DNA of 64,000 nt from Squalus acanthias (lineage: Eukaryota), in the NCBI GenBank assembly GCA_030390025.1, contig JASTWF010000033.1, forward strand, positions 5,334,001-5,398,000, written 5' to 3'. Position 1 is the first letter of the stretch. Every line of letters begins with the position of its first letter. The notes under the pieces were generated by a model that was not told the origin of the DNA, ran no database searches, and worked only from the letters and a program-made list of their open reading frames with translations. The translations under genes and the position numbers were made by a program. This document shows, piece by piece, positions 8,665-64,000 of the stretch.

Positions 8665-8737
8665 TGTTTCCGCCCGGGCTCGAACCGGGTACCTTTCGCG
8701 TATGAGGCAAACGTGACAACCGCTACACTACAGAAAC
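8665..8737 (-). tRNA. tRNA-Val scaffold with CAT anticodon
   Basis: GTTTCTGTAGTGTAGCGGTTGTCACGTTTGCCTCATACGCGAAAGGTACCCGGTTCGAGCCCGGGCGGAAACA; all stems pair (some G-U), A and B boxes intact. Confidence 0.85.
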
Positions 8738-9083: not shown

Positions 9084-9156
9084 GTTCCCGTAGTGTAGTG
9101 GTTATCACGTTCGCTTTACAAGCGAAGAGTCCCCGTTTCGAGGCCGGGCGGAAACA
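9084..9156 (+). pseudogene. tRNA-Val(TAC), probably pseudogene
   Basis: 73 nt, TT-TAC-AA loop; G53>T in the B box, acceptor mismatch. Confidence 0.85.
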
Positions 9157-9802: not shown

Positions 9803-9875
9803 GTTTCCGTTGTGTACTGGTTATCGCATTCCGCTAACACACGAAAACTCAACGGTGCGAATGTGAGTAGACACA
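9803..9875 (+). pseudogene. degenerate tRNA-Val(AAC), paralog of 6720-6792
   Basis: gtttccgttgtgtactggttatcgcattccgctaacacacg... Confidence 0.7.
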
Positions 9876-10644: not shown

Positions 10645-10728
10645 GAACCGGCGTTCTCGGGTCCGATTTTCGCTTCGGTGTTTGTTTAAATTTCCGAGAA
10701 CTCCGCGGTTCAAATCCCAAAAGAGCGT
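10645..10728 (+). pseudogene. tRNA-Pro(CGG)-like with ~13-nt insertion, paralog of 8301-8384
   Basis: cgcttcggtgtttgtttaaatttccgagaactccgcggttcaaatccc. Confidence 0.7.
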
Positions 10729-11008
10729 TCGTTTGCCGGCCACTATTCAACTTGCAGTTGAATCTTTGCAATCACCATTAAATAACCGATTACCATAATT
10801 TACAGAATGAAAGAAAGGCGAAATACACTTCAATAACGCATTTGGCCCTTTGTAAGTAATGAACTGTTAACCATATCTCATGTTACACATTGTACTTTAG
10901 GAATCGCGTTTAAAATGTTCATTGCTTATGAAAGCAGAAACCTGGAGCAACTTTTGTTAAAATTAACAGAACTGGTCACTGCATAGAATGAAATCCTGGC
11001 AAATGTAA

Positions 11009-11082
11009 TGTTTCCGCCCGGGCTCGAACCGGAGACTTTTTCGCGTGTGATACGAACGTGATAAGCGCTACACTACGGAAAC
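11009..11082 (-). tRNA. tRNA-Val(CAC), slightly damaged
   Basis: GTTTCCGTAGTGTAGCGCTTATCACGTTCGTATCACACGCGAAAAAGTCTCCGGTTCGAGCCCGGGCGGAAACA; D-loop GG>GC and 1-nt insertion. Confidence 0.85.
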
Positions 11083-11314
11083 CGCTCCGTCGTTGCTCAC
11101 AGGGGATAGACTCAGTAGTGAACAAAATATACCACAGCGTTCATTTTCAGATTCAAGGCAGTCAAATTTTAAATCAAGTGAAAGAATGTTTCTGTGAAAC
11201 GATTTGGAATTGTGTGTTACTGGTATTTTTGCCTTTAATTAACGATTGTGGCGTCTGACTCCCGTTCATGTCACCTCTTCCTCTGTTGAATAAGAAAGGA
11301 GGGGTTGCCATTGA

Positions 11315-11471
11315 GTTAGATATAACACTCACAACTAGGGGGATCAAGGGGTATGGCGAGAAAGCAGGAATGGGGTACTGAGGTAGCATGTTCAGCCATG
11401 AACGCATTGAATGGCGGTGCAGGCTCGAAGGACCGAATGGTCTACTCCTGTACCTATGTTTCTATGTTTCT
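11315..11471 (+). mobile_element. 5'-truncated CR1 3' end with ATTGA TSD
   Basis: CR1 tail ending ctatgtttctatgtttct; ATTGA at 11310-11314 and 11472-11476; empty site in the paralog at ~8964. Confidence 0.85.
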
Positions 11472-11590
11472 ATTGACCAGACTGCACAGCGCCTGATATA
11501 TGCGAGCTCAACCTTTATATTGTGTGATGCTGTTTAAGGTAAACCAATCAGCACTGGTCAGTTCCGCTCTGGTGAAGCAATGAACACTGC

Positions 11591-11663
11591 GGCTCCGTTG
11601 TGTAGTGGTTATCACGTTCGCTTTATACGCGAAAAGTCCCCGGTTCGAGGCCGGGCGGGAGCA
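11591..11663 (+). pseudogene. tRNA-Val scaffold, anticodon TAT, acceptor stem damaged
   Basis: ttcgc-tt-tat-ac-gcgaa; paralog of the TAC copy at 9084. Confidence 0.8.
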
Positions 11664-12299
11664 TTATGTTTAAACTTGCTGTGGATGAGCAACCAGCGGT
11701 GTTTATTCCAAATGACAAGAGATAATTACTGGAAATACTGTCAATCTGAAATAGAAACGGAAAATATCGGAAATTCTCAAGAGGTCAGGCAGTGTATGTG
11801 GATAAAGAATCAGGGTAGAACGTTTCAAGTCGATTACCCTTCGTAAGACCTGTGAAACGTCAGAGATGAATGGCTAGTTTATTGTCCTGTCAATAGGTCT
11901 ACAGCGTCTTCTCCATTGTTCTTTATTTCACTTCATAAACCAGATACATTTGAGTGAGAGAAAACTGATCCGCAGTGAGGCCCATTTCATCTTTTGTTCC
12001 CTTTTACAACCTAGAATCTCTGAAGCCCTAAAGTTCAGAAATGTAATTCAGTAATCTGCAGGGTGGCCGTCAGTCCGAAGCCTTTTCTGTCTGGATCCGG
12101 GAGTGCAGCTGGTGTAAGGCTCAAGGTTGCAGCTATTCTCGATAGATTTTTGTTTGGTAAGGTTATTAAGGGTTACGGAAACAAAGCGGGTAGATGATGC
12201 GAAGATACAGATCAACCCTGATCTAATTGAATGGCGCAACAGGCTCAAGGGGCTGAATAACCTCGTCAGTTCCCCTCTATTGAAAAGATGAACACAGCG

Positions 12300-12356
12300 G
12301 TTCCCGTAGTATATTGGTTATCACGTTCGTTTTGCACGCGAAAGGTACCCGTATCC
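12300..12356 (+). pseudogene. 3'-truncated tRNA-Val scaffold (anticodon TGC)
   Basis: gttcccgtagtatattggttatcacgttcgttttgcacgcgaaaggtacccg, then joins unrelated spacer sequence. Confidence 0.75.
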
Positions 12357-13382
12357 AGCCCTGACGGTGCAGAAAGTTCCTCTGAAAGTTACACATTCCG
12401 GCTGCTTTTAAGTTGAACAGTGACAGATTATTAAAGGATCCTGCAGCGCTCCCTCGCTTCAGGGCAGCAGATCTAATCCGCGTTTCTGCAAACTAATAGC
12501 AATTCCTGCTGTGTGCAACGAAATGCTGTGGGTTGATTAATGAAAATAGAAACAATTATGAATTGTCTCACAGAATTCATTTATGCCTTCAGTTAACCAA
12601 AATCTATCAATCGCAGCTTAAAATGAGCAATTGATGCAGCATCTTTGAAAGAGGTATCCAATTAGTCCCACTCCGCTGCTCTACCCACATAGCCCTGCTG
12701 ACACTCCTGTCAGTGGAAACTGATTCCCCCATAATTTTGAACACCTCTATTAAATCCCCCCTGAACTGTGATTAATGGAGTGCAATGCGGGCAAGTGTCA
12801 GATCATCCACCTGGGGGCCTAACAAAGATCGCTCAGTGTATGGTCTGAAAACATCATGTCAGAGAATATTCTCATTTCTTTCATTCTGCAAAAGAAAGTT
12901 AGCGGTTAATTAATGGTGATGAAAGCAGTTCTTATTTCATCACATTAGATTCATGTTATTAATTTAATAATTTAATAATCCCTTATCCTGTGACTCTATC
13001 CCTTAGTTCTAGACTCTACAGCCAGGGGAAACAGCCTCTCAGCAACTACCCTTTCAAGCCCTTCAAGAAAATTGTACCTTTCAATGAGAACAGCTCTCGT
13101 TCTTCTGGAATTCAGACAATATCGGCCCAATCTACTGAATTTCTCCTCAAAGGACAACCCTACCATGACAGGAATGAATCAGGTTTGATTCCCACTCAGG
13201 GACTTCAGTTTTGACAAAGACAATTGAAGTCTGTGAGACACTTAATAATTGTTTTAATCAACACACCAAAATGTTTGCACACTGAAGGAAATGCTAACAA
13301 ATTTGCCGGGTGACAGTCAAACTTTAATAACTGTTTTTATACAATCATAGATTCAGCGCAGAAGCGGGTAATCGAGCACGGA

Positions 13383-13455
13383 ATTTCCGTAGTGTAGTGG
13401 TTATCACGTTCACCTAACACGCGAAAAGTACCCGTTTCGAAACCGAGCGGGAGCA
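13383..13455 (+). pseudogene. tRNA-Val(AAC), probably pseudogene
   Basis: 73 nt followed by TTTT; G1>A and G53>T changes. Confidence 0.85.
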
Positions 13456-14270
13456 TTTTGAAAACATGTTCAATTAAATAGCAGAAAAATTGAACAATTC
13501 TCATTTGTGGTTCAATGTAGCAAAGTCCTGTTAATTTTGTTGTTTCTCTGTACAGTTCTGTACACACTCAAAACACTTCAGTGTCGCTCGCTCACTGCCG
13601 TTTCCAACCCTGACGGTGCAGAAAGCCTCTGTCAACGCTGCACATTCCGGCTGCTTTCAGTTGAATAGTGACAGATTATTAAAGGATCCTGCAGCGCTTC
13701 CTCCGTTTAGAACAGCAGATCTAATCCGCGTTTCTGCAAACTACTAGCAATTCCTGCAGTGTGCAACAAAATGTTGTGGGTTGACTAATGAAAATAGAAA
13801 CAATTATGATGTTTCTCACAGAATTCAATTATCCCTTAATACCTTTGTTTAACTAAAATCTATCAATCGCAGCTTAAAATGAGCAATTGATGCAGCATCT
13901 TTGAAAGAGGTATACAATTAGTCCCACTCCGCTGCTCTTCCCCCATAGCCCTGCTGACACTCCTGTCAGTGGAAACTGATTCCCCCATAATTTTGAACAT
14001 CTCTATTAAATCTCCCCTGAACTGTGATTAATGGAGTTCAATGCGGGCAAGTGTCAGAACATCCACCTGGGGCCTAACATAGATCGCTCAGTGTATGGTC
14101 TGAAAACATCTAGTCAGAGAATATTCTCATTTCTTTCATTCTGCAAAAGAAAGTTAGCGGTTAATTAATGGTGATGAAAGCAGTTCTTATTCTATCACAT
14201 TAGATGCATGTTATTCATTTAATGAAATTACTTCGCATTCATGAATTAAAAACGGTGATATCAAAATTAA

Positions 14271-14294
14271 TTCCCTAACCGGGAATCGAACCCG
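14271..14294 (-). pseudogene. tRNA-Glu 3' fragment (also at ~16846-16875 and ~60735-60760; plus strand ~33088-33114)
   Basis: ttccctaaccgggaatcgaaccc is the reverse complement of the tRNA-Glu T arm/acceptor end. Confidence 0.6.
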
Positions 14295-15044
14295 CTTCAT
14301 GGCGCTGCTTGGAATAGGTTATTGAATCATTCAAAGGTGCCCTCGAAAAATTTCACACTGCTAAATTAAAATCACTGCGACAATTTGTTCTGGTCTTGAA
14401 GAAGGGAATTGAAAATTATAATAAAAACGCCAGGCATCGACCGCGATGAGGCCGAGTTCGAACTTTCAAAGAAGCTGGAAGCGCTGAGCTGAAGCTGACG
14501 CCGAGTGACGGACGAGAAGCCGCTCAATATAAAGGATGAGCTCACAATCATCAGGCGCAGTGCAGTCTGGTCACCATCAAGCCACGCCTTTCTTATTCAG
14601 AAACATGAACGGGAGCCAGACGCCACAAACTTTAATTAAAGGCACAAATACGAGTAACACTTACGTCCAAATTTTCACTGTTAAAATTATATCACATTAT
14701 TCTAAATCTGACTGCGTTGAATCTGAAAGGCAACACCATGGTGATTTGAAGTTCACTGCTGGATTATATTTTCTGTGCACGGTAGAAATAACCGGTCCTG
14801 TTCAATGTGACAAAAGTTGCCCCAAATTCCTGGTGTCATCAGCAATGTACATTTTAAACCAGACTCCTACAGTACATTGTGTAAAATGAGATATGAGTAA
14901 CAGTTAACATGCAAAGCACAAAAAAAATGATTGAAGTATCGACTCTCGCTCAGTTATCATTTCTTTCATTGTGCAAAAGAAGATTATCGGTTAATTAATG
15001 AGGCTTTTCAGCGAATGCAACATAAAAGTTGAACAAAAAGCACT

Positions 15045-15118
15045 CGCCCAACGTAGGGCTCGAACCCACGACGACTGAGATTAAGAGTCTCATGCTTTAC
15101 CGACTGAGCTGGCCGGAC
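15045..15118 (-). tRNA. tRNA-Lys(CTT), slightly diverged
   Basis: GTCCGGCCAGCTCAGTCGGTAAAGCATGAGACTCTTAATCTCAGTCGTCGTGGGTTCGAGCCCTACGTTGGGCG, followed by a T5 terminator. Confidence 0.9.
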
Positions 15119-15648
15119 CTGACAATTTTGCAAGCCCTGGTCACTTATTGCAGTCAGGCGCCTGATGGCCCCGCCCCAGGGGTTTAACTTGTTCTGCAAA
15201 TCACGAACCAGGTTCTCTTCAATTCCAAGGTGTGTAAGGAAATCAAGCATCAACAGCCCTTTCATTAACCACAGGGATTTATGCAATGTTCTGATCGCAA
15301 AGCGCTTTTAGTCATTCTCAATATCTCTCGACTATTTCCGTCTGTTTCCCGATTCTGTCTGTCTCTCTGGCTCTGTTTATTCTGTGTGTGGCCACCTGCA
15401 GGTTGATTTTTAACGAATACCTGTGCTTGTGTCTTGTCACATTAAATAAATGAGGAATTGTGGCGCTTCTCTCCCTGATACTGGGGAATCAGTGAGACAG
15501 ACTTTGGAGCAAGGGTCTGGTATTGTGAAACAGCAAAGAAAATATTAATTCCGGAAATGCTGACATGAATTGCCGGTATACAGTCAAACTTCAATAAATG
15601 TTTTTCAGAATCATAGATTTACCGCAGAAGCCCAAAATTCAGCACAAA

Positions 15649-15707
15649 ATGTCCGTAGTGGTTATCACGTACGCGAAAAGTCTGCGGTACGAAACCGGGC
15701 GGAAACA
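15649..15707 (+). pseudogene. tRNA-Val remnant with anticodon arm deleted
   Basis: gtagtggttatcacgt|acgcgaaaagtctgcggtacgaaaccgggcggaaaca. Confidence 0.75.
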
Positions 15708-16982
15708 TTTCTTAAATCATGTTCAATTAAATAGTGGAAACATGGAAAAATTCGCATTTGTCATTCAAAGTCCTGTTCCATTTGTGTTTCTCTGTACAGC
15801 TCTGTGCACACTCAAAACACTGGAGTGTCGCTCGCTCACTCCCGTTTCAAGCCATGACGGTGACGAAAGCCCCTCTCAAAGCTGCACATTCCGGCTGCTT
15901 TCAGTTGAATTGTGAAAGATTATTCAAGGATCCTGCAGCTTTGCCTCGGTTCACAACAGCAGATCGAAGCTGCGTTTCAGTAAACTACGAACCATGTTCT
16001 CCAGAATTACAAGTTGTATAAGGAACTCAGACATCAAAATCTCTTCCATTAACCACAGGGGTTCAGGCAATTTTCTATGATTCTATAAAAAGTTATTGAA
16101 GTTTGACTGTCATCCGGTAAACATGTTAGCAATTCCTGCAGTGTGCAACAAAATGTTGTGGGTTGATTAATGATAATAGAAACAATTATGAAGTCTCTCA
16201 CAGACTTCAATGATCCATTAATAACGTTAGTTAAATAAAATCTATCAATCGCAGATTAAAATGAGCAATTGATGTAGCATATTTGAAAGAGTTATCCAAT
16301 TAGTCCCAGTCCGGTGCTCTTTCCCATAGCCCTGCTGATACTCCTGCCAGTAGAAACTGTTGCACCCATAATTTTGATCACCTCTATTAAATCCCCCCTG
16401 AACAATGATTAATTGAGTTCAATGCGGGCAAGTGTCAGATCATTCACTTGGGACCTATCAAAGATCGGTCAGTGTATGGGCTGAAAACATCATGTCAGAG
16501 AATACTTTTTTTTCTGTGAAATAGCCGGTCCCGTTAAATTTAACAAAAGTTGCCCCAGATCCCTGCTCTCACAAGCAATGAACATGTTAAACCATTCTCC
16601 TAAAATACATTGTGTAAAATGAGATATGGGTTAACAGTTCAGCACATGCAAAGAGCAAAATAAAATACTGAAGTTTTGACTGTCCCTCAGTAACAAGATT
16701 ATCATTTCTTTCATTCTGCAAAAGAAAGTTATCGGTTAATTAATGCTGATTAAAGCAGTTCTTATTTTATCACATTGGATGCGTGTTATAAATGTAATAA
16801 AATGACTTCGGATTCATGAATTAGAAACGCTGATGTCAAAATTACTTCCCTAACTGGGAATCGAACTCGGGTCGCTCGGGAGGCTTGGAATAGGTTATTC
16901 AATCATTTAAAGATGCCCTCGAAAAATTTCACACTGCTAATTTAAAATCACTGCGACAATGTGCTTCTGTGAAAATGATAAT

Positions 16983-17744
16983 GGCCCAGAAATTAAAAAT
17001 CGATGGTTCCCGCAGGGGTAAGGATTCCCCGCGATATCGCACTCTGCGCCTACCTTTTTGTTTCGGGCCCACACGAACTTCAGTTTCAGGGCCTCTCCCT
17101 GTTGCCAGCGTGCAGTGCTTGCGTGTCCCAGAGGCGCAATTAGTCCGTGCGAGCTCTGGGATCACGTGATTCAGTTAGAGCCAATGGCAGCACAACATCT
17201 TTCATTCATAGTTTTGACAGCAAGGGCTGTCAAATCTATGAATACTACAAGCCCCCAAAAGAACAGCTAAACCTCAATTATTTTTTTTTAAAAGCCATCA
17301 CATTAATTAAATAACTATAGTTCAATGAATTAACCACTTTAAACAAAAAATACAATTTTTGAAAAAATTTTAAATCTTTTTAATAGTTATAAAAATAAGC
17401 TTACCTTTCTTTAAAGTCTCTAAAAAAGATAAATCTGTTGAAAAAAATTTAAAATAACACTTAATTAACTACTTACCTTGTTAAAAGGGGGTCCTACGCT
17501 GCATTCTTTATGTGTAAAATCTTCACCACTTACCTGCGCGTTCAAACCTGAAAAAAAACTAAGTGCACTGCGTGCGCACAACCTGTACTGCACACGCGGT
17601 TCACTTAGGAACCGCCCCCTTTGCAATACACGAAGTGCCGGGTTCCCGCGCATGCGCAGTGCACGCAGGAAACCGGGAATTCGGGGCCTAATACGCAAGA
17701 GTACACAGTGCGTACTCTCGCGTATTCGCTCTAATTTTCGGGAC
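16983..17744 (-). mobile_element. MITE copy 4 with exact AAT TSD
   Basis: AAT-GGCCCAGAAATT...AATTTTCGGGAC-AAT; empty paralogous site gaaaattat-AAT-aaaaacgccagg at ~14411-14434. Confidence 0.9.
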
Positions 17745-18374
17745 AATAAAAACGCCAGGTAGCGCCTGCGGTGAGCCAGTGTTGGAACTTACAAACAAAT
17801 TGGCGCTGCGAAGTAACCATTGAGCTAAAGCTGACGCCGATTAAAAGCTGAGAAACCGCTCATTATAAAGGATGAGCTCACAAACATCAGGCGCAGTGCA
17901 GTCTGATCAACGTTAAGCCCCTCCTTTCTTATTCAGAGACATGAACGGGAGTCAGCCGCCACAAACTTTAATTTAAGGCACAAATACATGTAACACTTCC
18001 AAATTTTCACTGTTAAAATTATATCACTTTATTCCAAATCTGACTGCGTTGAATCTGAAAGTCAGCACCATGGGATTTTATGTTCACTGCTGATTCTATT
18101 TTCTGTGCAAGGTAGAAATAACCGGGCCTGTTCAATGTGACAAAAGTTGCCCCAGATTCCTGGTGTCATCAGCAATGAACATTTTAAACCAGACTCCTAC
18201 AGTACATTGTGTAAAATGAGATATGGTTAACAGTTAACATGCAAAGCACAACTAAAATAATTGAAGTATCGACTCTCGCTCATTTATCATTTCTTTCATG
18301 GTGCAAAATAAGATTATCGGTTAATTAATGATGCTTTTCCGTGAAAGCAACATAAAAGTTGAACAAAAAGCACT

Positions 18375-18447
18375 CACCCAACGTGGGGCTCGAGCCCACG
18401 ACCCTGCGATTAAGAGTCTCATGCTCTACCGACTGAGCGAGCCGGGC
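18375..18447 (-). pseudogene. tRNA-Lys(CTT), probably pseudogene
   Basis: GCCCGGCTCGCTCAGTCGGTAGAGCATGAGACTCTTAATCGCAGGGTCGTGGGCTCGAGCCCCACGTTGGGTG; T54>C and an anticodon-stem mismatch. Confidence 0.88.
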
Positions 18448-18894
18448 CACACACGCACGTACAGTTTTATCGCTGATTACAGCCAGGCGCCTGGTGGCTC
18501 AGCCCCAGGGGTTTAACTTGTTCTGCAAAACACGAACCAGGCTCTCCAGAAACCCAAGGTGTGTAAGGATATCGAGCAACAAAAGCCCTTTCATTAACCA
18601 CAGGGATTCAGGCAATTTTCTGATCGCAAAGCGCTTTCAGTCCTTGTCAATATCTCTTGTCCATTTCCCGATCTTTCCCAATTCTGTCTGTCCCTCTGGC
18701 TCTGTTTATTCTGTGTTTGGCCAACTGCATGTTGATTTTGAACGAATAGCTGTGATTGTGTCTGCTTGTTACTTTAAACAAATGAAGGCATGAGGCGCTT
18801 CTTTGCATGAAACTGAGAAATCAGAAGAAGGCAGGAGAAATGAAACAGTGTTTGTGGAACGCACATATATACAAACATCCCCCTTTACACTGCG

Positions 18895-18968
18895 GACCTC
18901 GTGGCGCAACGGTAGCGCGTCTGACTCCAGGTCTATGAAGGTTGCGTGTTCAAATCACGTCGGCGTCA
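18895..18968 (+). pseudogene. tRNA-Trp(CCA) with disrupted anticodon stem
   Basis: GACCTCGTGGCGCAACGGTAGCGCGTCTGACTCCAG...GTTGCGTGTTCAAATCACGTCGGCGTCA; 2 extra nt after the loop. Confidence 0.88.
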
Positions 18969-19261
18969 CTGTTCTTCCGAATAATCCCGGAGTTAATATT
19001 TTCTTTGCTGTTTCACAATACCCAGACTCATGCTCCAAAATCTGTCTCAGTGCTTCCCCAGTGTCAGGGAGAGAAGCGCCACAATTCCTCATGTATTTAA
19101 TGTGGCAAGACAAATGCACAGGAATTCGTACAAAATCAACCTGCAGGTGGCCACACACAGAATAAACAGGGCCAGAGAGACATACAGAATCGGGAAACAC
19201 AGGGATATTGACAAGGACTGAAAGCGCTTTGCGATCAGAAAATTGCCTGAATCCGGTCCGA

Positions 19262-23334: not shown

Positions 23335-24236
23335 TTATTTTATAATCTTAGAAAGTACAGTGAAGGGATATTTCACCCCATTCTTCAGCTCCTCTCTGAA
23401 CTTACTCTGGGTCACGGCATAAATAAAAGTGTTTGTGCAGCAACTCAGGAGCTGGAGCATAAACCCAAGTTCTTGTACAATGTTTAACATTGCACCACTA
23501 TCCAACCAGTACATTAAAACAATTCTAGAATAAATCGTGGCCACCAGGAGCACAGCCCATAGAAGGATAAAATTCCCCGAGATCACAAAAAGTACAGTAA
23601 TTGATTTTCTTCTGTTTTTAGACTCTGGATCGCTGGGACTCTCCCCACTGACCCGGTCCCGAAGTCTCTTTCGAATTCTGATGGTCACTAAAATGTGTCT
23701 GACGGTTAAAACATTGAGCATCAGAATCAGAATAAATGGTACACACGGGGTGAAAATATAATGTAGAAATTCAATTGCTGCCCATACTGGTGAAAGCATA
23801 ACGCTGAGTGTCATAGCGCAGAACCAAGGTAGTCTCTGAAGCAGATAGCTGCCTGTAACCATAAAGTACCAGAAAATGTTCTTCACACAGAACAACACAG
23901 TCATTGTTCCAATAACCACCGCCGCCGATTTCTCGGTGCAATATTTGTTTTTTAGCTTCTGGCAACAAATGGCCACAAATCGATCAAAGGTGAAAGAGAC
24001 GGTGAACCAGACAGAACAGTCTGTGGCTGCATAAAGTAGGACGGCGTGGATATTACACACGGGAATGTCGTTAAGAAAGCGAAACTTTGTATTATAAACA
24101 ACGGGAATGTGCCTCAGTATCAGATCGATGATAACGACCAGTAAATCCGCCGCTGCCATGGCCACCAGGTACCGAGTGACACAATTGGAGAGACCACACT
24201 TTCCCCGAGACAGGGTCACAATCGTCACTAAGTTAA
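23335..24236 (-). CDS. GPR139/GPR142-like class A orphan GPCR, exon 2 (TM1 end to stop)
   Basis: open frame NLVTIVTLSRGKCGLS..AMAAADLL..FTFDRFVAICC..LLSCCTNTFIYAVTQSKFREEL; polypyrimidine tract and TTACAG acceptor at 24237-24265. Confidence 0.92.
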
Positions 24237-24609
24237 CTGTAAGGAAGGGGGGGAAAGGGAAAATGCACATCAGGATTGGAGCTGAAATATCAGTGTCGTG
24301 GATCAATGGATGTCATTTGCTGAGAGCTCACAACATCCCGTGATGGAATCCATCATGACAGAACTTCATGTTAGAGCTAAGACTTCAAGTCAAGTGTCAG
24401 TAATGATTTGTGAATTCAAGGACTGATCAAATTGGATAAATAAACATGAAAATAACACGGTTATAATTATTCAGAAATGTCCAACAATAGAATGTGGTTT
24501 GCCCTAATGAACAAAGAGTAAACACACTGACTGGTGCCAACAAAACCTGATGGTGCTGACAGAAGGTCCCACGGTCAAATCTGGGCCTAGTCAGTTACAA
24601 TTGGAATCA

Positions 24610-24880: not shown

Positions 24881-25546
24881 TATTGTGATGTCACATATGA
24901 ACATAGGAGCAGGAGTGTGCCATTCAGCCCATCGAGCCTGTTCCGCCATTTAATGAGATCTGGGCTATCTGTATCCAAACTCCATTCATCTGCCTCGTGT
25001 CTATATAACTTAATACCCAACAAATGCTCAGTTTAGCTGAATCACTTCCCAAAACAGATGTTAGACTATCTAATCTTTAATTTCCTGGTATCTCTCTCTC
25101 ACCTTTCCTAAATAACAATTGCATTTGTAATTTTGCAACCTAATGGGACAATTCATGACTCGAGAGAGCTTCGGAAGATTACGGCTAAACCATCTGCAAT
25201 TTCCTCACTACTTTCTTTATAACCCTGGGGTGGAAACCATCTGGTTCTCGGGATTATCAGTCTTCAGTGCCATTATATTTGCTGATACTGTTTTCTTGCT
25301 TACGTTACCCCGACTACTTTTTCTCTTATATAATTGTAAAAACCTTTTGTGTTGCTCTTGAAATCGATCGCAATTTTATTTTCTTATTCCCTCTTTGCAG
25401 CTCTTAATATCTGTGTTGTCTTCCTTTGCTGTTCTTTCTATCTCTGGCAGCTCCCTCGATCTACACTATTATTTTCACTTTTGTATGTTATTTCCATTAG
25501 CTTTATGTTATCTCTCACCTCTTCTGTTGACCATTGTTCACATGAT

Positions 25547-25998
25547 TCCTGCTCCTGGTCAGTGACCCTGGGATATGGTGGGGTATACGCCTTGGTCCTG
25601 CTCCTGATCAGTGACCCTGTGATAGGGTGGGGTATACACCTTGGTCCTGCTCCTGATCAGTGACCCTGGGATATGGTGGGGTATACGCCTTGGTCCTGCT
25701 CCAAATCAGTGACTCTGGGATATGGTCGGGTATACGCCTTGGTCCTGCTCCTAATCAGTGACCCTGGGATATGGTGGGGTATACGCCTTGGTCCTGCTCC
25801 TGATCAGTGACCCTGGGATATGGTGGGGTATACGCCTTGGTCCTGCTCCTGATCAGTGACCCTGTGATATGGTGGGGTATACGCCTTGGTCCTGCTCCTG
25901 ATCAGTGATCCTGTGATATGGTGGGGTATACGCCTTGGTCCTGCTCCTGATCAGTGACCCTGTGATATGGCGGGGTATACGCCTTGGTCCTGCTCCTG
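25547..25998 (+). repeat. minisatellite, 49-bp unit, ~9 copies (GPCR intron)
   Basis: gtgaccctgggatatggtggggtatacgccttggtcctgctcctgatca in tandem. Confidence 0.95.
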
Positions 25999-27077
25999 TA
26001 CATTGTGTAATGACTTCTGCTGGAAAGTGTCTGTTTGAATGTTTGACGAGTAAAAGGATTGTTCAGCCACGTTATGTGCCGTGGCAGAATGACATTTTAC
26101 ACCTGCTGCCTCGCCTCAAACTTAATGAACGGTAATTTCAGAGTGGTCCCTGGTGCCGAAATCTAGCAAGGGCCTGTATAAACCCGGAGTTTAAATTAAT
26201 CCGACTAGCGGGAAAGGGGTGTGTTCAAGTCGGACACCTGTTTTACTCACCGTCCAATGGTCCGCAACATTGAAGTCAATGCATAGCGAAATCGGGCGGG
26301 CTGTAAAACGGGTGTCCGGGCCGAACTCGCCTGGTTCCCGCCGGGCGGGTTAGCTTCAAATGATAGCTGAAATTAGATACAGAGGCAGAGAACAAGAGTG
26401 AATTAAAATCATCAATGAAATATTTCAAAATTAACATCAGCCGTGAGATGGGTCTTAACTCGGGACAGCGTAAATCACTCTTAGAGGATATACTTCTAAC
26501 TAAAGAGGAGAACAGTACAAGGAGCAGAGGAAGACACCGGGTCATGAGGAGAGAGTGGGTCTGGGGAGTCGTTTTTGAAATACTGCAGCAAACAGCTGAG
26601 ACTGAGAGAAGGCTGAACCGTCTCCTTCTGTGCAGGAAACATCTGGGGTGTGAAACGGCAGTGGAAAAATGGACCAAAGGAGAATCATCTGTAATCATGT
26701 GTGGAACATGAGATAGCTGTCTTGTGAAAACTCATCAAGGACACAATACCTTCTGGAGAGGAAGAGAGAGAAACTTAAAAAATCAGTATTGGCAATAATA
26801 ACGGAATATTATCTTTTGCTACCGGATAAAAATGATCAGTAGCGGATTGGATGGGTATTGTACACACTGCCCGATTTCAGTCATTGATTACTGGCGCAAC
26901 TTTTAACTTTCAGCAAAGAAGTAAACGAGACAATATCGAATGGCCAATGTTTCTAAAACCCCACTCCGTTTCGCTATCCTGTAAAATCAATGTAAAGGAA
27001 ATTCGTGAGAGGTGTATAATGGGAGCCCAGTGTTACATAACCGATCTTACACTATTACCAATACAAAATGTACTACC

Positions 27078-27125
27078 TGTCTGTCGATCTGTCAGTATGT
27101 CTATCCACTGTCTGTCTATCTATCG

Positions 27126-27209
<84 letters not shown>

Positions 27210-27378
27210 CTCTCTCTATCTATCTATCTGTCTATCTATCTCTCTCTCTATCTATCTATCTGTCTATCTGTCTATCTATCTGTCTGTCTATCTATGTATA
27301 TATCTATCTATCTGTCTATCTATCTGTCTATCTATCTGTCTGTCTATCTATCTATCTAACTATCTATCTATCTAACTG

Positions 27379-27416
<38 letters not shown>

Positions 27417-27425
27417 CACTGTCTG

Positions 27426-27500
<75 letters not shown>

Positions 27501-27508
27501 GCCTGTAA

Positions 27509-27562
<54 letters not shown>

Positions 27563-27608
27563 TAATCTATCTATCTATCTATCTGTCTATCTATCTATCA
27601 ATCTATCT
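27078..27608 (+). repeat. (TATC)n/(TGTC)n compound microsatellite, ~530 bp
   Basis: direct inspection. Confidence 0.98.
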
Positions 27609-41087: not shown

Positions 41088-41162
41088 CACACCCGCTGCT
41101 TGAGCCAACTCTGTTTTCTCAATCTCTGCTACCATTCACAGCCAGTGGAATCGTTTCTGCCA

Positions 41163-41348
41163 GTGCTGGGAATACTCAACAGGTCAGGCAGCATCTGTGG
41201 AGAGTCCAACAGAGTTGTGACAAAGGGTCATTCACCTGAAACGTTAACTCGGTTTCTCTCTCCACAGATGCTGCCTGACCTGCTGAGATTTTCCAGTATT
41301 TTCTGGAGGGTTTTTAGATTTCTAGCATCCACAGTATTTTGCATTTGG
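41163..41348. mobile_element. inverted-repeat remnant of a second Penelope-like terminus family
   Basis: gctgggaatactcaacaggtcaggcagcatctgtggagag / ctctccacagatgctgcctgacctgctgagattttccagt arms with central degenerate hammerhead-like motif ...cctgaaacgttaact. Confidence 0.65.
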
Positions 41349-41609
41349 AATCTTTTCTGACTCCAGTTCAGTGGCACTTGTTGTCTGTTGCAAAGGGATG
41401 AATCGTTTCAACTGAAAAGTGAACTATCTTAGTCAAGAGCAAAATCTGTCATTGTGCCAGGAGCTGGACTGAGAGCTCCAGTAACATGGATTGCAGTAGC
41501 AGCTCAGGCGACTGGGGGTTTGTGGAATGTTGTAGTCTAGAATCGATCTGTCCGCAGATTTTAACAAGTGTCTGCATTTACATGTAAAACACAGAGATTG
41601 ACACAAATC

Positions 41610-50010: not shown

Positions 50011-50584
50011 GCTGAGTTGCTGTTATATTTCGAACATAACTAGAGTTTTAACCTGCACAACTGGCGGATACTTCAGGGGCTTTGTTTATAAGAATTGAAT
50101 TACGGTGCTATATTTAGGAAGGCTGTGAGATTGGCAGAAATTGATCCAGACTTTACAGATGGGAACATAGCAACAGAAGGAGGCCATCTATCCCCTGCAA
50201 CCAGGTTCTCCTGAAGTCCAAGGTGTGTAAGGAAATCAACCATCAAATTAACTACAAGCGTTCAGGCAATTTTCTGAAAGCAAAGCGCTTTTAGTCCTTG
50301 TCAATATCTCTTGTCTATTTCCCTATGGTTCCTGATTCTGTTTGTCCCTCTGTCTTTGTTTAACCTGTGTGACCACCTGCAGGTTGACTTTGAACGAATA
50401 CCTGTGTTTGTGTCTGAATTAAAAACAGAAAATGCTGGAAATACTCAGCTGGTCAGGCAGCATCTGTGGAGAGAGAAACACAGTTAACGTTTCAGGTCGC
50501 TGACCTCTCGTCATAACAGAAAAAAGTTAGAGTTGTAACAGGTTTTAAGCAAGTACAGAGGCAAGGGAAGAGGGGAGAGGAAGA

Positions 50585-50986
50585 TGCAGTGGTGTTCCCC
50601 AGGGGTCTGTATTAGGACCACTGCTCTTTTTCATATATATTAATGACCTGGACGTGGGTATACTGGGCATAATTTCCAAGTTTGCAGATGAAAGGAGACT
50701 CAGAAATGTAGTAAACAATGATCCGGAAAGTAACAGACTTCATGAGGACATCTACAGAGTGGTGGAATGGGCAGAGACACAGCAGATGGAATTTAACACA
50801 GAGAAGTGTGAAGTGATCCATTTTGGTCGGAAGATTGAGGAGATGCAACACAAACTAAATGGAACAATTTTAAATCAGGTGCAGGAACAAAGAGACCTGG
50901 GGGTGTATTTATCTATCTTTGAAGGTGGCGGGACAAGTTGAAAAGGCTGTTAAAAAGCCTACGGGATCCTTGGTTTTATTAATAGA
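50585..50986 (+). mobile_element. CR1 RT fragment (paralog of 52790-53196)
   Basis: ISKFADE..QMEFNTEKCEVIHFG..EQRDLGV. Confidence 0.85.
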
Positions 50987-52110
50987 GAGGTCGCACAACA
51001 CCAGGTTATAGTCCAACAGTTTTATTTGAAATCACAAGCTTTCAGAGCTATCGATCGCCCCTTCCTCAGGTGAAGTAGTAAAGAAATACAGACTCGACAA
51101 AGCATATATAGATAGAGAACAATGCATGTGTACCTTACAATTGCAGACAACTAAATTAAGTCATCCTGACTATCTGCCGAGGTGTGATAAAGTTAATCAG
51201 GTCAGCCAGGAAGGTACCACATCAAAGACATAGCAAGATACAACTGAGACAATGAGGTGGAGTCGCAGGGGGTCTAACGTGTCAAAAGCTGCCGTCTGTA
51301 TGTAAAACGATAAGCTGTAAAAAAAAATTACTTTTTTACTGGGAAAATTTTTACTTTTTTACTGGGTATCACATCTGTGAACAAGCCAATGACGACTCGA
51401 GTCCGGATCACGTCATGTATCGTGACATAAACCCAAGATCCCGGTTGAGACCGTCTTCATGAGTGCGGAACTTGGCTATCAGTTTCTGCTCGATGATTTT
51501 GCGCTGTCGTGTGTTCCTAAGGTTGCCTTGGAGAACGCTTACCCGCACATCCGAGGCTGAATGTCCTTGACTGCTGAAGTGTTCCCCGACTGGGAGATAA
51601 CAATCCTGCCTGGTGATTGATGCGCGGTGCTCGTTCATACGTTGTCTCAGTGTCTGCATGGTCTCGCCGATGTACCATGCCGCGATGCATTCTTTCCTGC
51701 AACGTATGAGGTAGACAACGTTGGCCGAGTCACATGAGTATGTACCATGTACCTGGTGGGTAGTGTCCTCACGTGTGATGGTGGTATCTGTGTTGATGAT
51801 CTGGCATGTCTTGCAGAGTTTGCCGTGGCAGGGTTGTGTGGTGTCGTGGTCGCTGTTATCCTGAAAGCTGGGTAATTTGCTGCGAACGATGGTACTTCTG
51901 AGGTTAGGCGGCTGTTTGAAGGCAAGTAGTGGAGGCGTGGGGATGGCCTTAGCGAGGTGTTTGTCGTCATCGATGACATGTTGAAGGCTGTGAAGAACAT
52001 GGCGTAGTTTCTCCGCTCCGGGGAAGTACACAGATACCACCATGTTCTTTGCAGCCTTCAACATGTCATCGATGACGACAAACACCTCGCTAAGGCCATC
52101 CCCACGCCTC
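50987..52110 (-). mobile_element. Penelope-like retroelement 3' part: GIY-YIG endonuclease, 3' UTR and terminal repeat
   Basis: AFKQPPNL, C..CKTC, NVVYLIRC, WYIGET.QTLRQRMNEHR, VGEHF, GLNRD motifs in ORF 51408-52030. Confidence 0.93.
51032..51073 (-). ncRNA. minimal type I hammerhead ribozyme motif in the Penelope terminal repeat
   Basis: ucac-CUGAGGA-a-ggggc(gaucgaua)gcucu-GAAA-gc-UU-guga: intact core, stem II, palindromic AAGCUU in place of stem III. Confidence 0.75.
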
Positions 52111-52471
52111 AAACACTGTTTCATTTCTCCTGCCTTGGACTAATGAAAGGGCTTTAAAATCCCCGCCCACTCCCAGAGGGTGTCAGACAGCATCAGAAGC
52201 AGCGCTCACCTGTCAGTCACCGTCTCACGCCCGCTTTCACCACCTGCTGCCGGCGGACTGCAGTAAATCCAATTACACGCACCGAGCCCCCACAATCATC
52301 ACATCACAGGGAAATAAACTGGGAAACTGCTCAAAATACACAACAGGCCGAGCAGCTTCTGAAAAACAATTAAACTTGTTGCGGGAAACAATATTCAGAA
52401 CTGCTAACAAGGCCGTGTACAAATATAAACTGTTGGTGTATGAGCCAAGGACTTAAGCTCTGGTATTTCCT

Positions 52472-52672: not shown

Positions 52673-53196
52673 TGTATATGGGTGTGGTGTTTATATATAA
52701 AATGGGTGTTTATAGAATGAGTGCGATGCTGTGCACGTGTATTAATTGTAAATAGGGGTGAACGGTTAGTTTTCAGACAGGAAGGAAGTATACAGTGGTG
52801 TTCCCCAGGGGTCGGTGTTAGGATCACTGCTCTTTTTGATATATATTAATGACCTGGACTTGGGAATACTGGGCATCATTTCAAAGTTTGCAGATGGCAG
52901 GAAACTCAGAAATGTACTAAATAATGAGACAGAACGTAACAGACTTCATGAGGACATCTACAGTGTGGTGAAATGGGCAGAGAAATAGCAGATGAAATGT
53001 GAAGTGTGAAGTGTGAAGTGATCCATTTTGGGCGGAAGATTGAACTGAGGCGATATAAACTAAATGCTACAATTTTAAATCGTGTGCAGGAACAGAGTGA
53101 CCTGGATTTACCAAAGATTGATCTATCTTTGAAGTTGGTGGGACAAGTTGAGAAGGCTGTTAAAAGGCATATGGGATCCTTGGCTTTATTAATAGA

Positions 53197-53420
53197 TGGG
53201 AGAAGTCGCACAACACCAGGTTATAGTCCAACAGCTTTATTTGAAATCACAAGCTTTCGGAGCGCTGCTCCTTCGACAGATGACCTTCTTCACTTCACCT
53301 GACGAGGGAGCAGCGCTCCGAAAGCTTTTGATTTCAAATAAAGCTGTTGGACTATAACCTGGTGTTGTGCGAATTCTCACATTTGTCCACCCCAGTCCAA
53401 AACCTGCATCTCCACATCAT
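53197..53420. mobile_element. Penelope-derived palindromic mini-element, copy 2
   Basis: inverted arms ~53200-53283 / ~53295-53378; 13-bp TSD CTTTATTAATAGA at 53184-53196 and 53421-53433. Confidence 0.9.
53294..53332 (+). ncRNA. minimal hammerhead ribozyme motif
   Basis: CUGACGA-g-ggagc(agc)gcucc-GAAA-gc-UU; core intact, stem I weakened. Confidence 0.7.
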
Positions 53421-53782
53421 CTTTATTAATAGAGTCATAGATTACAAAAGCAAGGAAGTAATGCTAAACATTTATACATCATTGGTTCGGCCTCAGGTGG
53501 AGGATTCTGGGCACAACATTTTAGGAAGGATGTGAAGGCAGAAAAGTTTCACAAGCATGTTTCGGGGGATGAGGGACTTTATTTACGTGGATAGACTGGA
53601 GAAGCTGTCGTTGTTCTCCTTAGAGCAGAGAAGTTTGCGAGGAGATCTGATAAAGGTGTTCAAAATCACGAGGGTCCTAGACAGGGCAGTGTCCGAGGCC
53701 CAACCATCTTCAGTTGATTCATCAATTACCTTCCCTCCAAAATAAGGTCAGAAATGGGGATGTTCGCTGAAGTCTGCACAGA

Positions 53783-56636
53783 AGCATAGAAGCATAGAAG
53801 ATAGGAGCAGGAGTAGGCTATTCGGCCCCTCGAGCCTGCATCGCCATTTAATGAGATCATGGCAGATCATCCAAATTCAGTACCCTGTCCCTGCATTCTC
53901 CACATATCCCTGAATCCCTTTAGCCTTAAGAAATATATCTATCACCTTCTTGAATATATTTAATGAATTGGCCTCAACTGCCTTCTGTGGCAGAGAATTC
54001 CACAGGTTCACCACTCTCTGGGTGAAGAAATTCCTCTTTATCTCAGTCCTAAATGGATCACCCCTTATCCTTAGACTGTGACCCTGGTTCTGGACTCACC
54101 ACCATCTGAAACAGCCTTCCTGCATCTAGTCTGTCTAGTCCTGTTAGAATTTTATAAGTTTCAATGAGATCCCCTCTCATTCTTCTAAACTCTAGCGAAT
54201 ATAAGCCTAATCGACCCAATATCTCTTCATACGTCATTCGTGCCATCCCAGGTATCAGTCTGGTGAATCTTCACTGCACTCCCTCCATGGCAAGAACATC
54301 CTTCCTCAGATAAGGCGACCAAAACTGCACACAATACTCAAGGTGTGGTCTCATCCAAGGCCCTGTACAGCTGCAGCAAGACATCCTTGCTCCTGTACTC
54401 GAATCCTCTCGTTATGAAGGCCAACATACCATTTGCCTTCTTAACCGCCTGCTGCACCTGCATGCTTACCTTCAGCAACTGGTGCACAAGGACTCCAAGA
54501 TCTCGTTGCACTTCCCCTTTTCCCAATCTATTGCCGTTCAGATAATAATCTGTCTTCCTGTTTTTGCCACCAAAGTGGATAACCTCGCATTTATCCACAT
54601 TATACTGCATCTGCCATGCATCTGCCCAATCACCCAACCTGTCCAAATCATACTGGAGTTTCTCTGCATCCTCCTCACAGCACACACGCCCACCCAGCTT
54701 TGTGTCGTCTGCAAACTTAGAAATATTACATCTAATTCCCTCGTCTAGATCATTAATATATATTGTGAATGGCTGGGGTCCTAGCACCGATCCCTGCAGT
54801 TCCCTACTAGTCACTGCCTGCAACTCAGAAAAAGACCCATTTATTCCAACTCTTTGCTTCCTGTCTGCAAACCAGTTCTCTATCCAAGACAGTACCTTAC
54901 CCCCAATCCCATGTGCTTTAACTTTGCATGCTAATCTCTTATGCGGGACCTTATCGAAAGCCTTCTGAAAGTCCAAATACACCACATCCACTGTTTCTCC
55001 CTTATCTATTCTACCAGTTACATCCTCAAAAAATTCCAGTAGATTAGTCAAGCATGATTTACCTTTTGTTAATCCATGTTGACTTTGTCCGAACCTGTCA
55101 CTGTTTTCCAAGTGCTCTGCTATTACATCTTTTATAATGGACTCTAGCATTTTGCCCACTACCGATGTCAGTCTTACCGGTCGAAAATTCCCCGTTTTTT
55201 CTTTACCACCTTTTTTAAATAGTGCGATTACATTAGCTACCCTCCAATCCATGGGAACTGTTCCAGAACTATAGATTTTGTAAGGTGAGCAGCAATGCAT
55301 CTACTTTTTCTAGGCCACTTCCTTAAGTACCCTAGGATGTAGAATATCAGGCCCTGGGGATTTATCAGCCTTCAATCCTGTCAATTTCCCGAACACCATT
55401 TCCCTACAAATACTGATTTCATTCAATTCCTCCCTCTCATTAGACCCTATGTTCCAATACATCTCTGGGAGTTTATTTGTGTCCTCCTTTTTGAAGACAG
55501 AACCAAAGTAAGTATTTAATTGGTCTGCCATTTCTTTGCTCCCCATTATACATTGCCCTGATTCTGACTGCAAGGGACCTACGTTTGACTTCACCAATCT
55601 TTTTCTCTTCACATATTTATAGAAGCGTTTATAGTCAGTTTTTATGTTCCCTGAAAGCTTACTCTCATATTCTTTTTTCCCCCTCTTAATTAATCCCTTT
55701 GTCCTCCTTTGCTGAATCCTAAACTGCTCCCAATCCTCAGGTTTGCTGCTTTTTCTGGCCAATTTATATGTCCTCTCCTTGGGTCTTATGCTATCCCTAA
55801 TTTCCCTTGTTAGCCACGTTTGAGTCACCTTTTTCTTTTATTTTTAAGCCAAACAGGGATGAACAATTTCTGTCGTTCATCCATGCGATCTTTAAATGTT
55901 TGCCATTGCCTAGTCACCGTCAACCCTTTAAGTAACGCTCCCCAATCCACCCTAGCTAACTCGCGCCTCATACCATCATAGTTTCCTTTATTTAAATTCA
56001 GGACCCTAGTCTCTGAGTCAACTACTTCACTCTCCAGCTTAATGAAGAATTCTATCATATCATGATCGCTCCTCCCCAAGGGACCTCGCACAACAAGATT
56101 GCTAATTAATCCTTTCTCATTACATAATACCCAGTCGAAGATGGCCTGATCTCTTGTTGGTTCCTCGACATATTGGTCCAGGAAACCATCCCGTATACAC
56201 TCTAGGAATTTCTCCTCCACAGTATTGTTACTAATTTGGTTAGCCCAATCTATATGTAGATTAAAGTCACTCATGATAACTGCTGTGCCCTTATTGCACG
56301 TATCTCTAATTTCCCATTTAATGCCATCCCCAACCTCAGCATTACTGTTTGGGGGTCTGTATACAACTCCCACTAACTTTTTCTGCCCCTTGGTATTTCT
56401 CAGCTCTAAGCATACAGATTCCACATCATCAGAGCTAATATCCTTGCTTACTATTGTGTTAATCTCCTCTTTAACCAGCAATGCTACACCACCTCCTTTT
56501 CCTTTTTGTCTGTCCTTCCTGAATATTGAATACCCCTGGATGTTGAATTCCCAGCCTTGGTCACCCTGGAGCCATGCCTCCGTAATCCCAATTATATCAT
56601 ATCTGTTTACATCTATTTGCACAGCTAATTCATGCA
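53783..56636 (-). mobile_element. near full-length CR1 ORF2 (APE endonuclease plus RT, frameshifted) with 3' tail
   Basis: ORFs 55825-56688 (GITEAWL, GGGVALLVKE, YRPPNS, SDH), 55310-55828 and 54338-55300 (DFQKAFDKVPH, FADDTK). Confidence 0.95.
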
Positions 56637-57907
56637 AATGGATGTTGTCTACATGGATTTTAGAAAGGTGTTTGACAAAGTACCACATAGAAGGCTGGTT
56701 TACAATATTGAGGCTGATGGAATAGCAGGGTCAGTGGTAGCTTGGATCAGGAATTGGCTGAAGGATAGAAAACAGCGAGTTGTGGTAAATGGCTGTTTTT
56801 CACACTGGAGGATGGTAGACAGTGTTGTTCCCCAAGGGTCAGTGCTGGGGCCATTGCTTTTGTGATATTTATAACTGACCTGGATATTGTATTACAGAGT
56901 AGAATTTCTAAATTTGCCGACGACACCAAACTTGGGGGTGTAACAAACAGTGAGGATGATACCAATCGACTGCAGCAGGACAGAGAAAGGCTAGCAGAAT
57001 GGGCAGACAAGTGGCAGATGGAATTTCATACAGAGAAGTATGAAGTGATGCATTTTGGCAGAAGGAACAGTGAGACGCAATATACACATAATGGCACAGT
57101 TTTAAAGAGTGTGCAGGGAAAGAGGAACCTGGGATTTAATGTGCATAGGTCCTAGAAGGTGGCAGGACATATGGAGGGAGTGGTTAACAAAACATATCGG
57201 ATCTTGGGCTTCATAAATAGAGGTATGGAGTACAAAAGTAGAGAAGTGATGCTGAACCTTTATAAAGTTATGGTTAGGCCGCAACTGGAGTACTGCGTCC
57301 AGATCTGGTCACCACATTTTAGGAAGGATGTGAAGGCCCTTGAGAGGGTGCAGTGGAGATTTACCAGAATGGTCGCGGTGATGGGGGATCTTAGCTACAA
57401 GGACAGGCTGGAGAAGCTGCATTTGTTTTCATTACAACCACAACAACTTGCATTTATCTAGCGCCTTTGACATAATAAAACGTCCCAAGGCGCGGCACAG
57501 GAGTATTTTAAGACAAAGGAGGTTGAGGGGTGATCTGATACAGGTGTAAAACATTATAATGAGTTTGGATAGGCTAAACGGGGAAAGGATGTTCCCACTA
57601 GTTGATGTTAAAAGGACTAGGGGACACATATTTAAGTTATTGGGGAAGAGATACAGGAGGGTCGTTAGGAAAAAAAAATACGCAGCGAGTGGTGAGGACC
57701 TGGAATTCGCTGCTGACGGAAGTGGTGGAAACGGAGACACTCAATGTTTTCAAGTGTAGACTGGATAGGCACTTGAGGGAAATAAACCTTCAGGGCTGCG
57801 GGGACAGAGCGGGGGGAATGTGACTGACTGGATTGCTCTACAGAGAGCCAGCACGAACTCGATGGGCCGAATGGCCTCTTTCTATGCCGTTTTGACTCTA
57901 TGACTAT
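56637..57907 (+). mobile_element. CR1 3' half carrying the same L2-tail insert (57435-57507) as the copy at 1-835
   Basis: [34 protein letters not shown]; tail tgactctatgactatg. Confidence 0.92.
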
Positions 57908-63437: not shown

Positions 63438-63481
63438 ACTAACAGATGTAGAATCTGTCAGAGGAACAGTCGAGCTGTGAA

Positions 63482-63745
63482 CAGAGTGAGAAAGAGAGAG
63501 TAGAGAAGGACATAGAGAGAGACAGAGACAAAGAGAGAGATAGAGACAAAGAGAGAGACAGAGACAAAGAGAGAGACAGAGACAAAGAGAGAGACAAAGA
63601 GAGAGACAGAGAGAGAGACAGAGACAAAGAGAGAGACAGAGACAAAAAGAGAGACAGAGACACAGAGAGAGACAGAGAGAGAGACAGAGACAAAGAGAGA
63701 GACAGATTGCGACACAGAAAGAGAGACAGACACACAGAGCGAGAG
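63482..63745 (+). repeat. (GA)/(GACA)/(GACAAA) compound microsatellite
   Basis: direct inspection. Confidence 0.95.
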
Positions 63746-63764
63746 CCTCAGTTTGACGTATCAT

Positions 63765-64000
63765 AGAGTGGTCCCCGGGATGAGGGACTTCAGTTATGTG
63801 GAGAGACTGCAGAAGCTGGGATTGTTTTCCTCAGAAGGTTAAGAGGTAATTTAATGGAGGTTTTCAAAATGACAAGGGGTTTTGATAGAGTAAATAAGCA
63901 GAAACTTTTTCCAGTGGCAGGAGGTTCGGTAACCAAAGGACACCGATTGAAGATAACCGGCAAAAGAACGAGAGGGGAGATGAGGAAACATGTTTTACGC
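63765..64000 (+). mobile_element. CR1 3' coding fragment running off the window
   Basis: gatgagggacttcagttatgtggagagactg...ccagtggcaggaggttcggtaaccaaaggacac. Confidence 0.82.

Follow-up and report, generated by a model that had tools for sequence, protein, structure and literature searches.

Complex insertions of endonuclease-bearing Penelope-like elements (PLEs) often carry an inverted, 5′-truncated copy beside the 5′ end and a 30-40-bp tail that is often present at one end only, as described in the accessible text of PMC8557442. In the accessible parts of two such reports these insertions are mostly ORF-bearing (PMC3846280, PMC8557442). The Pen2a and Pen2 elements of Adineta vaga have inverted pseudo-LTRs, a 31-bp tail, target-site duplications of 8-10 bp, and palindromes at the inverted junction, and self-priming has been proposed for inverted PLE junctions (PMC3846280). 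For PAc, a Poseidon element of Anolis carolinensis, both DNA strands are cut and extended at AT-rich sites, two internal reverse transcriptase (RT) starts bound the tail, and ribozyme cleavage is dispensable in vitro (PMC11167929). The available text on minimal hammerhead ribozymes of metazoan PLEs reports low self-cleavage activity and, in Schistosoma, motif pairs on opposite strands about 100-700 bp apart (PMC4209133). Non-LTR retrozymes are described as tandem repeats in head-to-tail order, in which one strand carries two or more hammerheads (bioRxiv 10.64898/2026.07.22.740005).

The 64,000-nt stretch of Squalus acanthias DNA analysed here (the window) contains two short hairpin insertions, A and B, whose organization follows the pattern of endonuclease-bearing PLEs in most respects. 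As in the published complex insertions, a truncated terminus is repeated head to head, a 30-40-bp tail is one-sided, an AT-rich target is duplicated over about 8-13 bp, and microhomology or a small palindrome lies at the junction (PMC3846280, PMC8557442). Unlike those insertions, the arms of A and B stop at the hammerhead, contain no ORF and total 209-224 bp. An inverted 5′-truncated copy is found in A, in B and in a third copy, C; in A and B it comes with a one-sided tail and an AT-rich duplication of variable length. A and B are most likely the smallest form of the published PLE insertion pattern and not a new self-copying ribozyme unit.

Like PAc, the shark family has two fixed ends bounding the tail, an AT-rich target and a minimal hammerhead in the pseudo-LTR. 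In PAc the hammerhead contains the beginning of the ORF, and RT starts lie at 111-118 nt of that ORF (PMC11167929); judging from the letters after 53420, the shark tail appears to run up to a putative start codon. Unlike PAc, the shark parent has a C-x4-C-x2-C linker. An AC-rich stem-loop is reported at the PAc RT start and a comparable one can form here (5335-5412), where the tail can pair with the upstream pseudo-LTR through a 19-nt inverted repeat (79%; 5335-5353 / 5394-5412) that encloses the tailless end site. Two other classes were considered and set aside. Retrozymes, reported in one chondrichthyan genome in the available text, are likewise non-coding, pseudo-LTR-related and hammerhead-bearing, but A and B are head to head with one sense hammerhead per strand. 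MITEs have inverted repeats at both termini and a fixed short target-site duplication, whereas the tail makes the ends of A and B asymmetric and their duplications measure 11 and 13 bp.

Copies A and B and their parent element

Copies A and B are 86% identical to each other over 222 columns, and each is 89% identical to its own reverse complement (over 169 nt in A and 186 nt in B). The arms measure 80-87 bp and the tail is on the right side only (Table 1). As the original prediction had it, both are head-to-head palindromes with a short tail, and they inserted independently, each with its own exact duplication. Among 3000 random 215-nt intervals of the window, 13 had duplications of at least 11 bp and 11 had duplications of at least 13 bp. 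The target of B lies inside an RT fragment of a CR1-type LINE, whose sequence picks up again after the right duplication. The predicted hairpins reach -143.8 kcal/mol (z about -20) in one copy and -139.5 kcal/mol (z about -22) in the other, and none of 200 shuffles of either was as stable.

Table 1. Coordinates of copies A, B and C and of their parts within the window
Feature	Position	Strand	Details
Copy A, hairpin insertion	5211-5419		209 bp
A left target-site duplication	5200-5210	+	11 bp, exact
A inverted arm	5211-5291	-	tailless; cut at hammerhead core C3; GAAA box changed to GGAA
A junction microhomology	5289-5291		3 nt, TCA
A direct arm	5292-5379	+	core U4>C (5299); helix II mismatch
A tail	5380-5419	+	40 bp
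A right target-site duplication	5420-5430	+	11 bp, exact
Copy B, hairpin insertion	53197-53420		224 bp
B left target-site duplication	53184-53196	+	13 bp, exact; AT-rich, centred on palindromic AT word
B inverted arm	53197-53283	-	PLE pseudo-LTR end without tail
B minus-strand hammerhead, core to cleavage site	53279-53251	-	A6>U in core; helix I pairable
B direct arm	53284-53379	+	pseudo-LTR end
B plus-arm hammerhead, helix I 5′ strand	53295-53298	+	
B plus-arm hammerhead, core	53299-53305	+	
B plus-arm hammerhead, extra nucleotide	53306	+	
B plus-arm hammerhead, helix II	53307-53319	+	
B plus-arm hammerhead, GAAA box	53320-53323	+	cleavage predicted after 53327
AATAAA in B direct arm	53337-53342	+	
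B tail	53380-53420	+	41 bp, one side only; both edges are fixed end sites in public runs
B right target-site duplication	53421-53433	+	13 bp, exact
Copy C, whole	50985-52117		
C parent PLE 3′ UTR and tailless pseudo-LTR end	50985-51407	-	
C hammerhead	51069-51036	-	core and 4-bp helix I intact; loop II longer
C PLE protein, C-terminal 208 codons	51408-52037	-	thumb end, C-x4-C-x2-C linker, GIY-YIG endonuclease
C inverted ORF piece at 5′ junction	52040-52117	+	78 bp

BLAST of A and B against the window identified copy C as the third clear copy of the arm (minus strand, 50985-51076). In this copy the shared terminus sits about 330 bp past the stop of an ORF with a GIY-YIG domain (Pfam E-value 1.6e-4; 22.4 bits, just below the cut-off of 22.6), a family found in 1 of the 27 ORFs scanned. 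When longer proteins were searched with this ORF, 32 of 267 candidates proved to be hits, the top three coming from Heptranchias, Scyliorhinus and Mustelus (85, 84 and 79% identity). The best hit (P0001, 643 aa, 85% identical) combines an RVT_1 domain with a matching C-terminus, so that RT and GIY-YIG in a single ORF are seen through homologs; the window holds the frame without its RT part. Because copy C joins the terminus to the GIY-YIG ORF and the best matches are shark proteins, we assign the arm, from its sequence, to the pseudo-LTR end of an endonuclease-bearing shark PLE. The predicted Penelope origin of A and B is confirmed by this junction of terminus and ORF, and their expected dependence on the protein of an autonomous element is upheld.

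The C-x4-C-x2-C motif of copy C matches the CX2-5CxxC linker between RT and endonuclease of Neptune; the accessible text of PMC8557442 ties this linker motif to Neptune and gives one to Nematis as well. Judged by the cysteine motif and not by a tree, the parent's linker is of the Neptune/Nematis type. The Poseidon clade was also considered for the parent and was dropped because this linker is present. The inverted piece at the 5′ junction of C is 94% complementary to 51925-52002, which places the inversion about 1 kb further in than the terminus, and no tail, right duplication or target-site duplication was found for this copy after 52117. Copies C (50975-50984) and B (53184-53196) lie at an identical AT-rich palindromic word in two CR1 copies that are 2.2 kb apart and about 85% identical. 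Within the window this word is confined to three places, the C site and the two duplications of B; two hits on a preferred target are probably the explanation, with local duplication as the alternative. Pieces of the PLE C-terminus also lie inside predicted shark gene models (P0006, P0011, P0015, P0016 and P0029) annotated as NOXP20-like, cytochrome P450, septin 5a, XRCC5 and USP8, through either exonisation or annotation error.

A second PLE family has left a fold-back stump at about 41146-41359 (insert about 41160-41345), with 51-bp arms, a 14-bp duplication with one mismatch (13/14), and in its middle a degenerate hammerhead with a GAAACGUU box; by eye, the predicted cleavage site marks the end of the inverted arm, which is joined through helix I sequence. 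This family or its relatives recur on the minus strand at 50413-50575, 6144-6268, 9228-9352 and 11745-11869. Three of these ends lie within a locally repeated unit, and the end at 50514-50486 keeps a near-complete minimal hammerhead. Elsewhere, an open 325-codon frame at 23335-24312 (minus strand) contains a rhodopsin-family seven-transmembrane domain (Pfam E-value 6e-17), apparently a single-exon GPCR gene. A Vault RNA match at 17748-17837 (minus strand; Rfam, 44.6 bits against a threshold of 34) lies near several tRNA-like matches. The region 6000-19200 has locally duplicated blocks 2.3-3.3 kb apart with 91-97% identity and several tRNA or tRNA-derived matches, for example at 9084-9156, 11592-11663, 15045-15118 and 18375-18447. 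A tandem array of 49-bp units spans 25449-26095, simple-repeat arrays occur at about 27017-27570 and 63466-63780, a long remnant of a CR1/L2-type LINE, its endonuclease and RT domains lying in different frames, occupies 54314-56730 (minus strand), and many further RT fragments are spread over the window.

Decay and context of the hammerhead motifs

The arms present the layout of a minimal hammerhead, with CUGANGA, one extra nucleotide, a 5-bp helix II, GAAA and an AGCU palindrome. The CUGANGA core, the unpaired nucleotide before helix II, the G10.1-C11.1 pair, the palindromic 15.2-16.2 step and a helix I of 4-5 bp are all shared with the minimal hammerheads in the available description (PMC4209133), whereas helix II is 5 bp here and 7-8 bp in Schistosoma. 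Also in contrast to the Schistosoma pairs, the two motifs are only 20-40 bp apart, and all four in A and B are lesioned. The family motif fits the minimal-hammerhead description, and the minimal hammerheads originally predicted for the arms of A and B are recognizable there as a layout, but none of the four has every feature. Copy C departs from the description only in a G-U pair at 10.1-11.1. The plus arm of B had been described as intact, and it is the sole arm with an unchanged core; however, 53328 is T where G makes up about 99% of summed contig depth in all four public runs, so that helix I begins with a C-U mismatch. The other three arms had been described as carrying core substitutions. 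All three do have lesions, but the minus arm of A is truncated: its junction cuts the core at C3, helix I is lost, and the box reads GGAA. The A plus arm combines U4>C in the core with a mismatched pair in helix II.

With the helices constrained and one mismatch tolerated in the core, a scan found three motifs in the window (the B minus arm, copy C and one of the second PLE family) and none in any of 20 shuffles. The bare CUGANGA...GAAA pattern is at chance level, with 8 matches against 6.95 expected, and rises above chance only when the helices are constrained. At the Rfam gathering threshold no hammerhead was detected in the window, the 13 matches being 12 tRNAs and one Vault RNA.

The orientation of the arms limits what these motifs could do in RNA. 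Owing to the head-to-head arrangement, each strand has a single hammerhead in sense orientation, preceded by its antisense copy. A read-through transcript thus supplies no second ribozyme for a dimer, and since the antisense arm is transcribed first on either strand, the ribozyme in such a transcript would be blocked. In the predicted fold of the whole plus-strand B transcript the probability of helix II is 0.000, and in the direct arm alone it is about 0.03. The switch between ribozyme and hairpin that had been proposed is therefore at odds with the layout; folding predictions make it unlikely in a read-through transcript unless transcription starts at the centre. We regard the hammerheads as decaying passengers from the pseudo-LTR, which would be locked in a long hairpin on read-through.

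Junctions, end sites and the formation of the palindromes

Between A and B the centre differs by 14 nt, and the arms meet at different points: the inverted arm of A stops at core C3, whereas that of B runs into helix I and the B direct arm starts further upstream. In copy C the junction lies inside the ORF, with a 1.1-kb arm. Taken with the second-family stump, these junctions indicate that the inversion has no single site and is not confined to one family. An internal junction and length common to the copies was not seen in the two stumps compared, although a palindrome may now and then be mobilised again. The idea of a distinct replicating ribozyme unit finds no support in this comparison, since centres vary in the copies studied, the very sign named beforehand as speaking against it, and the layout recurs in copy C and in the second PLE family.

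Contigs of four public sequencing runs (X1, X5, X12 and X20) were aligned to 53270-53445. Two of the runs are from one organism, X12 is from another species, and X20 is guessed to be RNA and is uninformative on expression. From the 8679, 7092, 15040 and 1310 matching contigs in X1, X5, X12 and X20, respectively, the PLE family is very abundant and common to more than one species. The counts of contig ends cover 24 of 421 loose-end rows and 32 of 32516 contig pieces, and rarer classes of junction may exist beside those listed. Among the ends listed, 124, 97, 282 and 14 contigs (in the same order of runs) exit into varied AT-rich flanks at 53420, and 33 and 36 contigs in X1 and 25 and 26 in X5 exit at 53379 and 53384. 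The outer ends are fixed, and these sites correspond to the tailed and tailless ends that A and B have in their right and left arms, and that are also seen in C. Upstream of 53287 the best-supported continuation, again among the ends listed, is one shared, non-inverted sequence (20, 8 and 70 contigs in X1, X5 and X12; agreement 0.67-0.70) that by eye resembles the 3′ UTR of copy C. In X12, a single run of another species and of unrecorded library type, 23 contigs start at 53329, by the predicted cleavage site, with heterogeneous AT-rich flanks (agreement 0.39); this class was absent among the rows listed for X1 and X5. Summed depth over the B-centre bins 53270-53281 is 10-18 in X1, 0-30 in X12 and nil in X5 and X20, against an arm depth of 1e5-1e6 in the three DNA-type runs, and the listing contains a single opposite-strand joint. 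These figures are not counted as evidence, because the reference includes just 14 nt of the inverted arm, assemblies may drop hairpin centres and depth gives no copy number.

We consider it probable that the palindromes are made anew at each insertion of a shark PLE with a Neptune-type linker and are not carried as a unit. An RT-GIY-YIG protein, probably as a dimer, would make a staggered cut 11-13 bp apart at an AT-rich site; the duplications are observed, and the dimer and two-strand cutting are taken from the available account of the lizard element PAc. Reverse transcription may then start at two fixed sites 40 nt apart in the element RNA, giving the tailed and tailless ends, of which the ends are observed and the assignment to RT starts is carried over from PAc. 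Synthesis would stop short, some 80-135 nt along, on reaching the 5′ edge of the hammerhead, where, judging from their position, a small native hairpin and helix I could provide the pause site and the microhomology; of the 6 arm ends of the A/B/C family in the window, 4 cluster at this edge, a count biased by the original selection of short palindromes. In the last step the two halves would meet head to head, through either the annealing of two cDNAs or the fold-back priming of a single one.

The foremost alternative is inheritance of the centres: a non-autonomous palindromic derivative would be transcribed whole, and the PLE protein would re-insert it. Trans-mobilisation through pseudo-LTRs has been published (PMC3846280), non-autonomous PLE derivatives are known in the accessible literature (PMC8557442; bioRxiv 10.64898/2026.07.22.740005), and A and B are similar in size with both outer ends fixed. 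Their lengths (209 and 224 bp) and the positions of all four arm ends, within about 17 nt, are tighter than random truncation would give, a clustering biased by the selection of short palindromes in the original prediction. The first 16 nt of the B direct arm match the A junction at 15 positions, as expected if B was copied from an A-like palindromic RNA. We read this match instead, on weak support, as native upstream sequence, which continues at the start of the B direct arm in one contig (X20, among the ends listed). A native mini-hairpin of 8 of 9 bp just upstream of the core (-7.0 kcal/mol) would favour junctions there, although its support for native origin is thin. The arms of A share an extra C in loop II that those of B lack, which argues for a matched template for both arms in each insertion, and a palindromic template also fits. 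At 53343 the family is about evenly split in X1 and the arms of A differ, as would fit two templates, but one transition is too little to go by. Against inheritance stand the differing centres of A and B, the occurrence of the layout at any arm length, as in C, and in another family, and the hairpin of about -140 kcal/mol that the RT must unwind. In the accessible text on PAc, use of the RNA needs the ORF past the RT starts (the first 172 nt), and the stumps end at the tail; we extend this requirement to the shark family by analogy. On balance, inherited centres are unlikely.

It is less probable still that the stumps are long inverted insertions that later collapsed by deletion of the middle, with B and C perhaps one duplicated insertion. 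Copy C, with its 1.1-kb arm and lost right side, does occupy the same target word in the second CR1 copy, 2.2 kb from B, and matches the B left arm at 70 of 84 columns, close to the divergence of the CR1 hosts (85% in a 482-column alignment). Yet B seems to postdate the split of the CR1 copies, since its duplications are identical and no more than 4 of 79 positions distinguish its arms. Copies B and C also differ at 53343, in loop II and, by 5 nt, at their junctions, nor would one expect a later deletion to end at the hammerhead border in A, in B and in the second family alike. A comparably low probability attaches to the proposal that the RNA sets the length, through short transcripts from a pseudo-LTR promoter or cut by the ribozyme, with RT running off the 5′ end. 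Such promoters have been proposed for PLEs (PMC11167929, PMC3846280), and the clustering of arm ends at the hammerhead edge, the inverted arm of the second family that by eye ends at the predicted cleavage site, and the 23 X12 contigs that begin at 53329 with varied AT-rich flanks (among the ends listed) would all agree with it. The 53329 class, however, comes from one run of another species and was not among the rows listed for X1 or X5, and in the available PAc report no RNA-seq reads ended at the cleavage site (PMC11167929). A and B themselves read through this site, so their templates were uncut, which also counts against it. This proposal alters only the halting of synthesis in the favoured reading, formation of the palindromes anew, and is compatible with the rest.

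Wider occurrence and significance

The exact 22-nt arm motif had no matches in metagenome, prokaryote-genome or viral contigs. A protein-profile scan of metagenome contigs returned 13 loci among 76 candidates, all distant (25-52% identity), and a strict minimal-hammerhead scan of those 13 loci found no motif; the loci were left out of the rest of the analysis. In a survey of titles and abstract openings we found no paper on short palindromic PLE stumps in sharks, although Repbase or Dfam may list the family, and none on a palindromic non-autonomous PLE family.

The structure itself is ordinary for PLEs, and its value lies in the material it offers on the formation of inverted ends and on the role of the hammerhead. 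In a high-copy shark family junctions are countable at single-base resolution, which could tell priming at two ends apart from fold-back priming and could reveal whether the ribozyme cleaves in vivo; RNA-seq of the lizard element, in the text available, did not show such cleavage. A tentative extension, which we hold doubtful, is that the hammerhead sets the ends of copies in vivo by stopping RT and sometimes by cleaving the template, and that a minority of stumps may re-amplify. If so, an RT stop at the 5′ edge would yield fold-back stumps of 200-225 bp and cleavage would yield copies starting at the cleavage site, so that thousands of stumps would be a fossil record of ribozyme action in vivo and of the twin-priming or fold-back step of integration. 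The 53329 starts in X12, if confirmed, would be a genomic trace of such cleavage. For the host, many perfect genomic hairpins of 80-90 bp would likely be a source of double-stranded RNA for editing or silencing.
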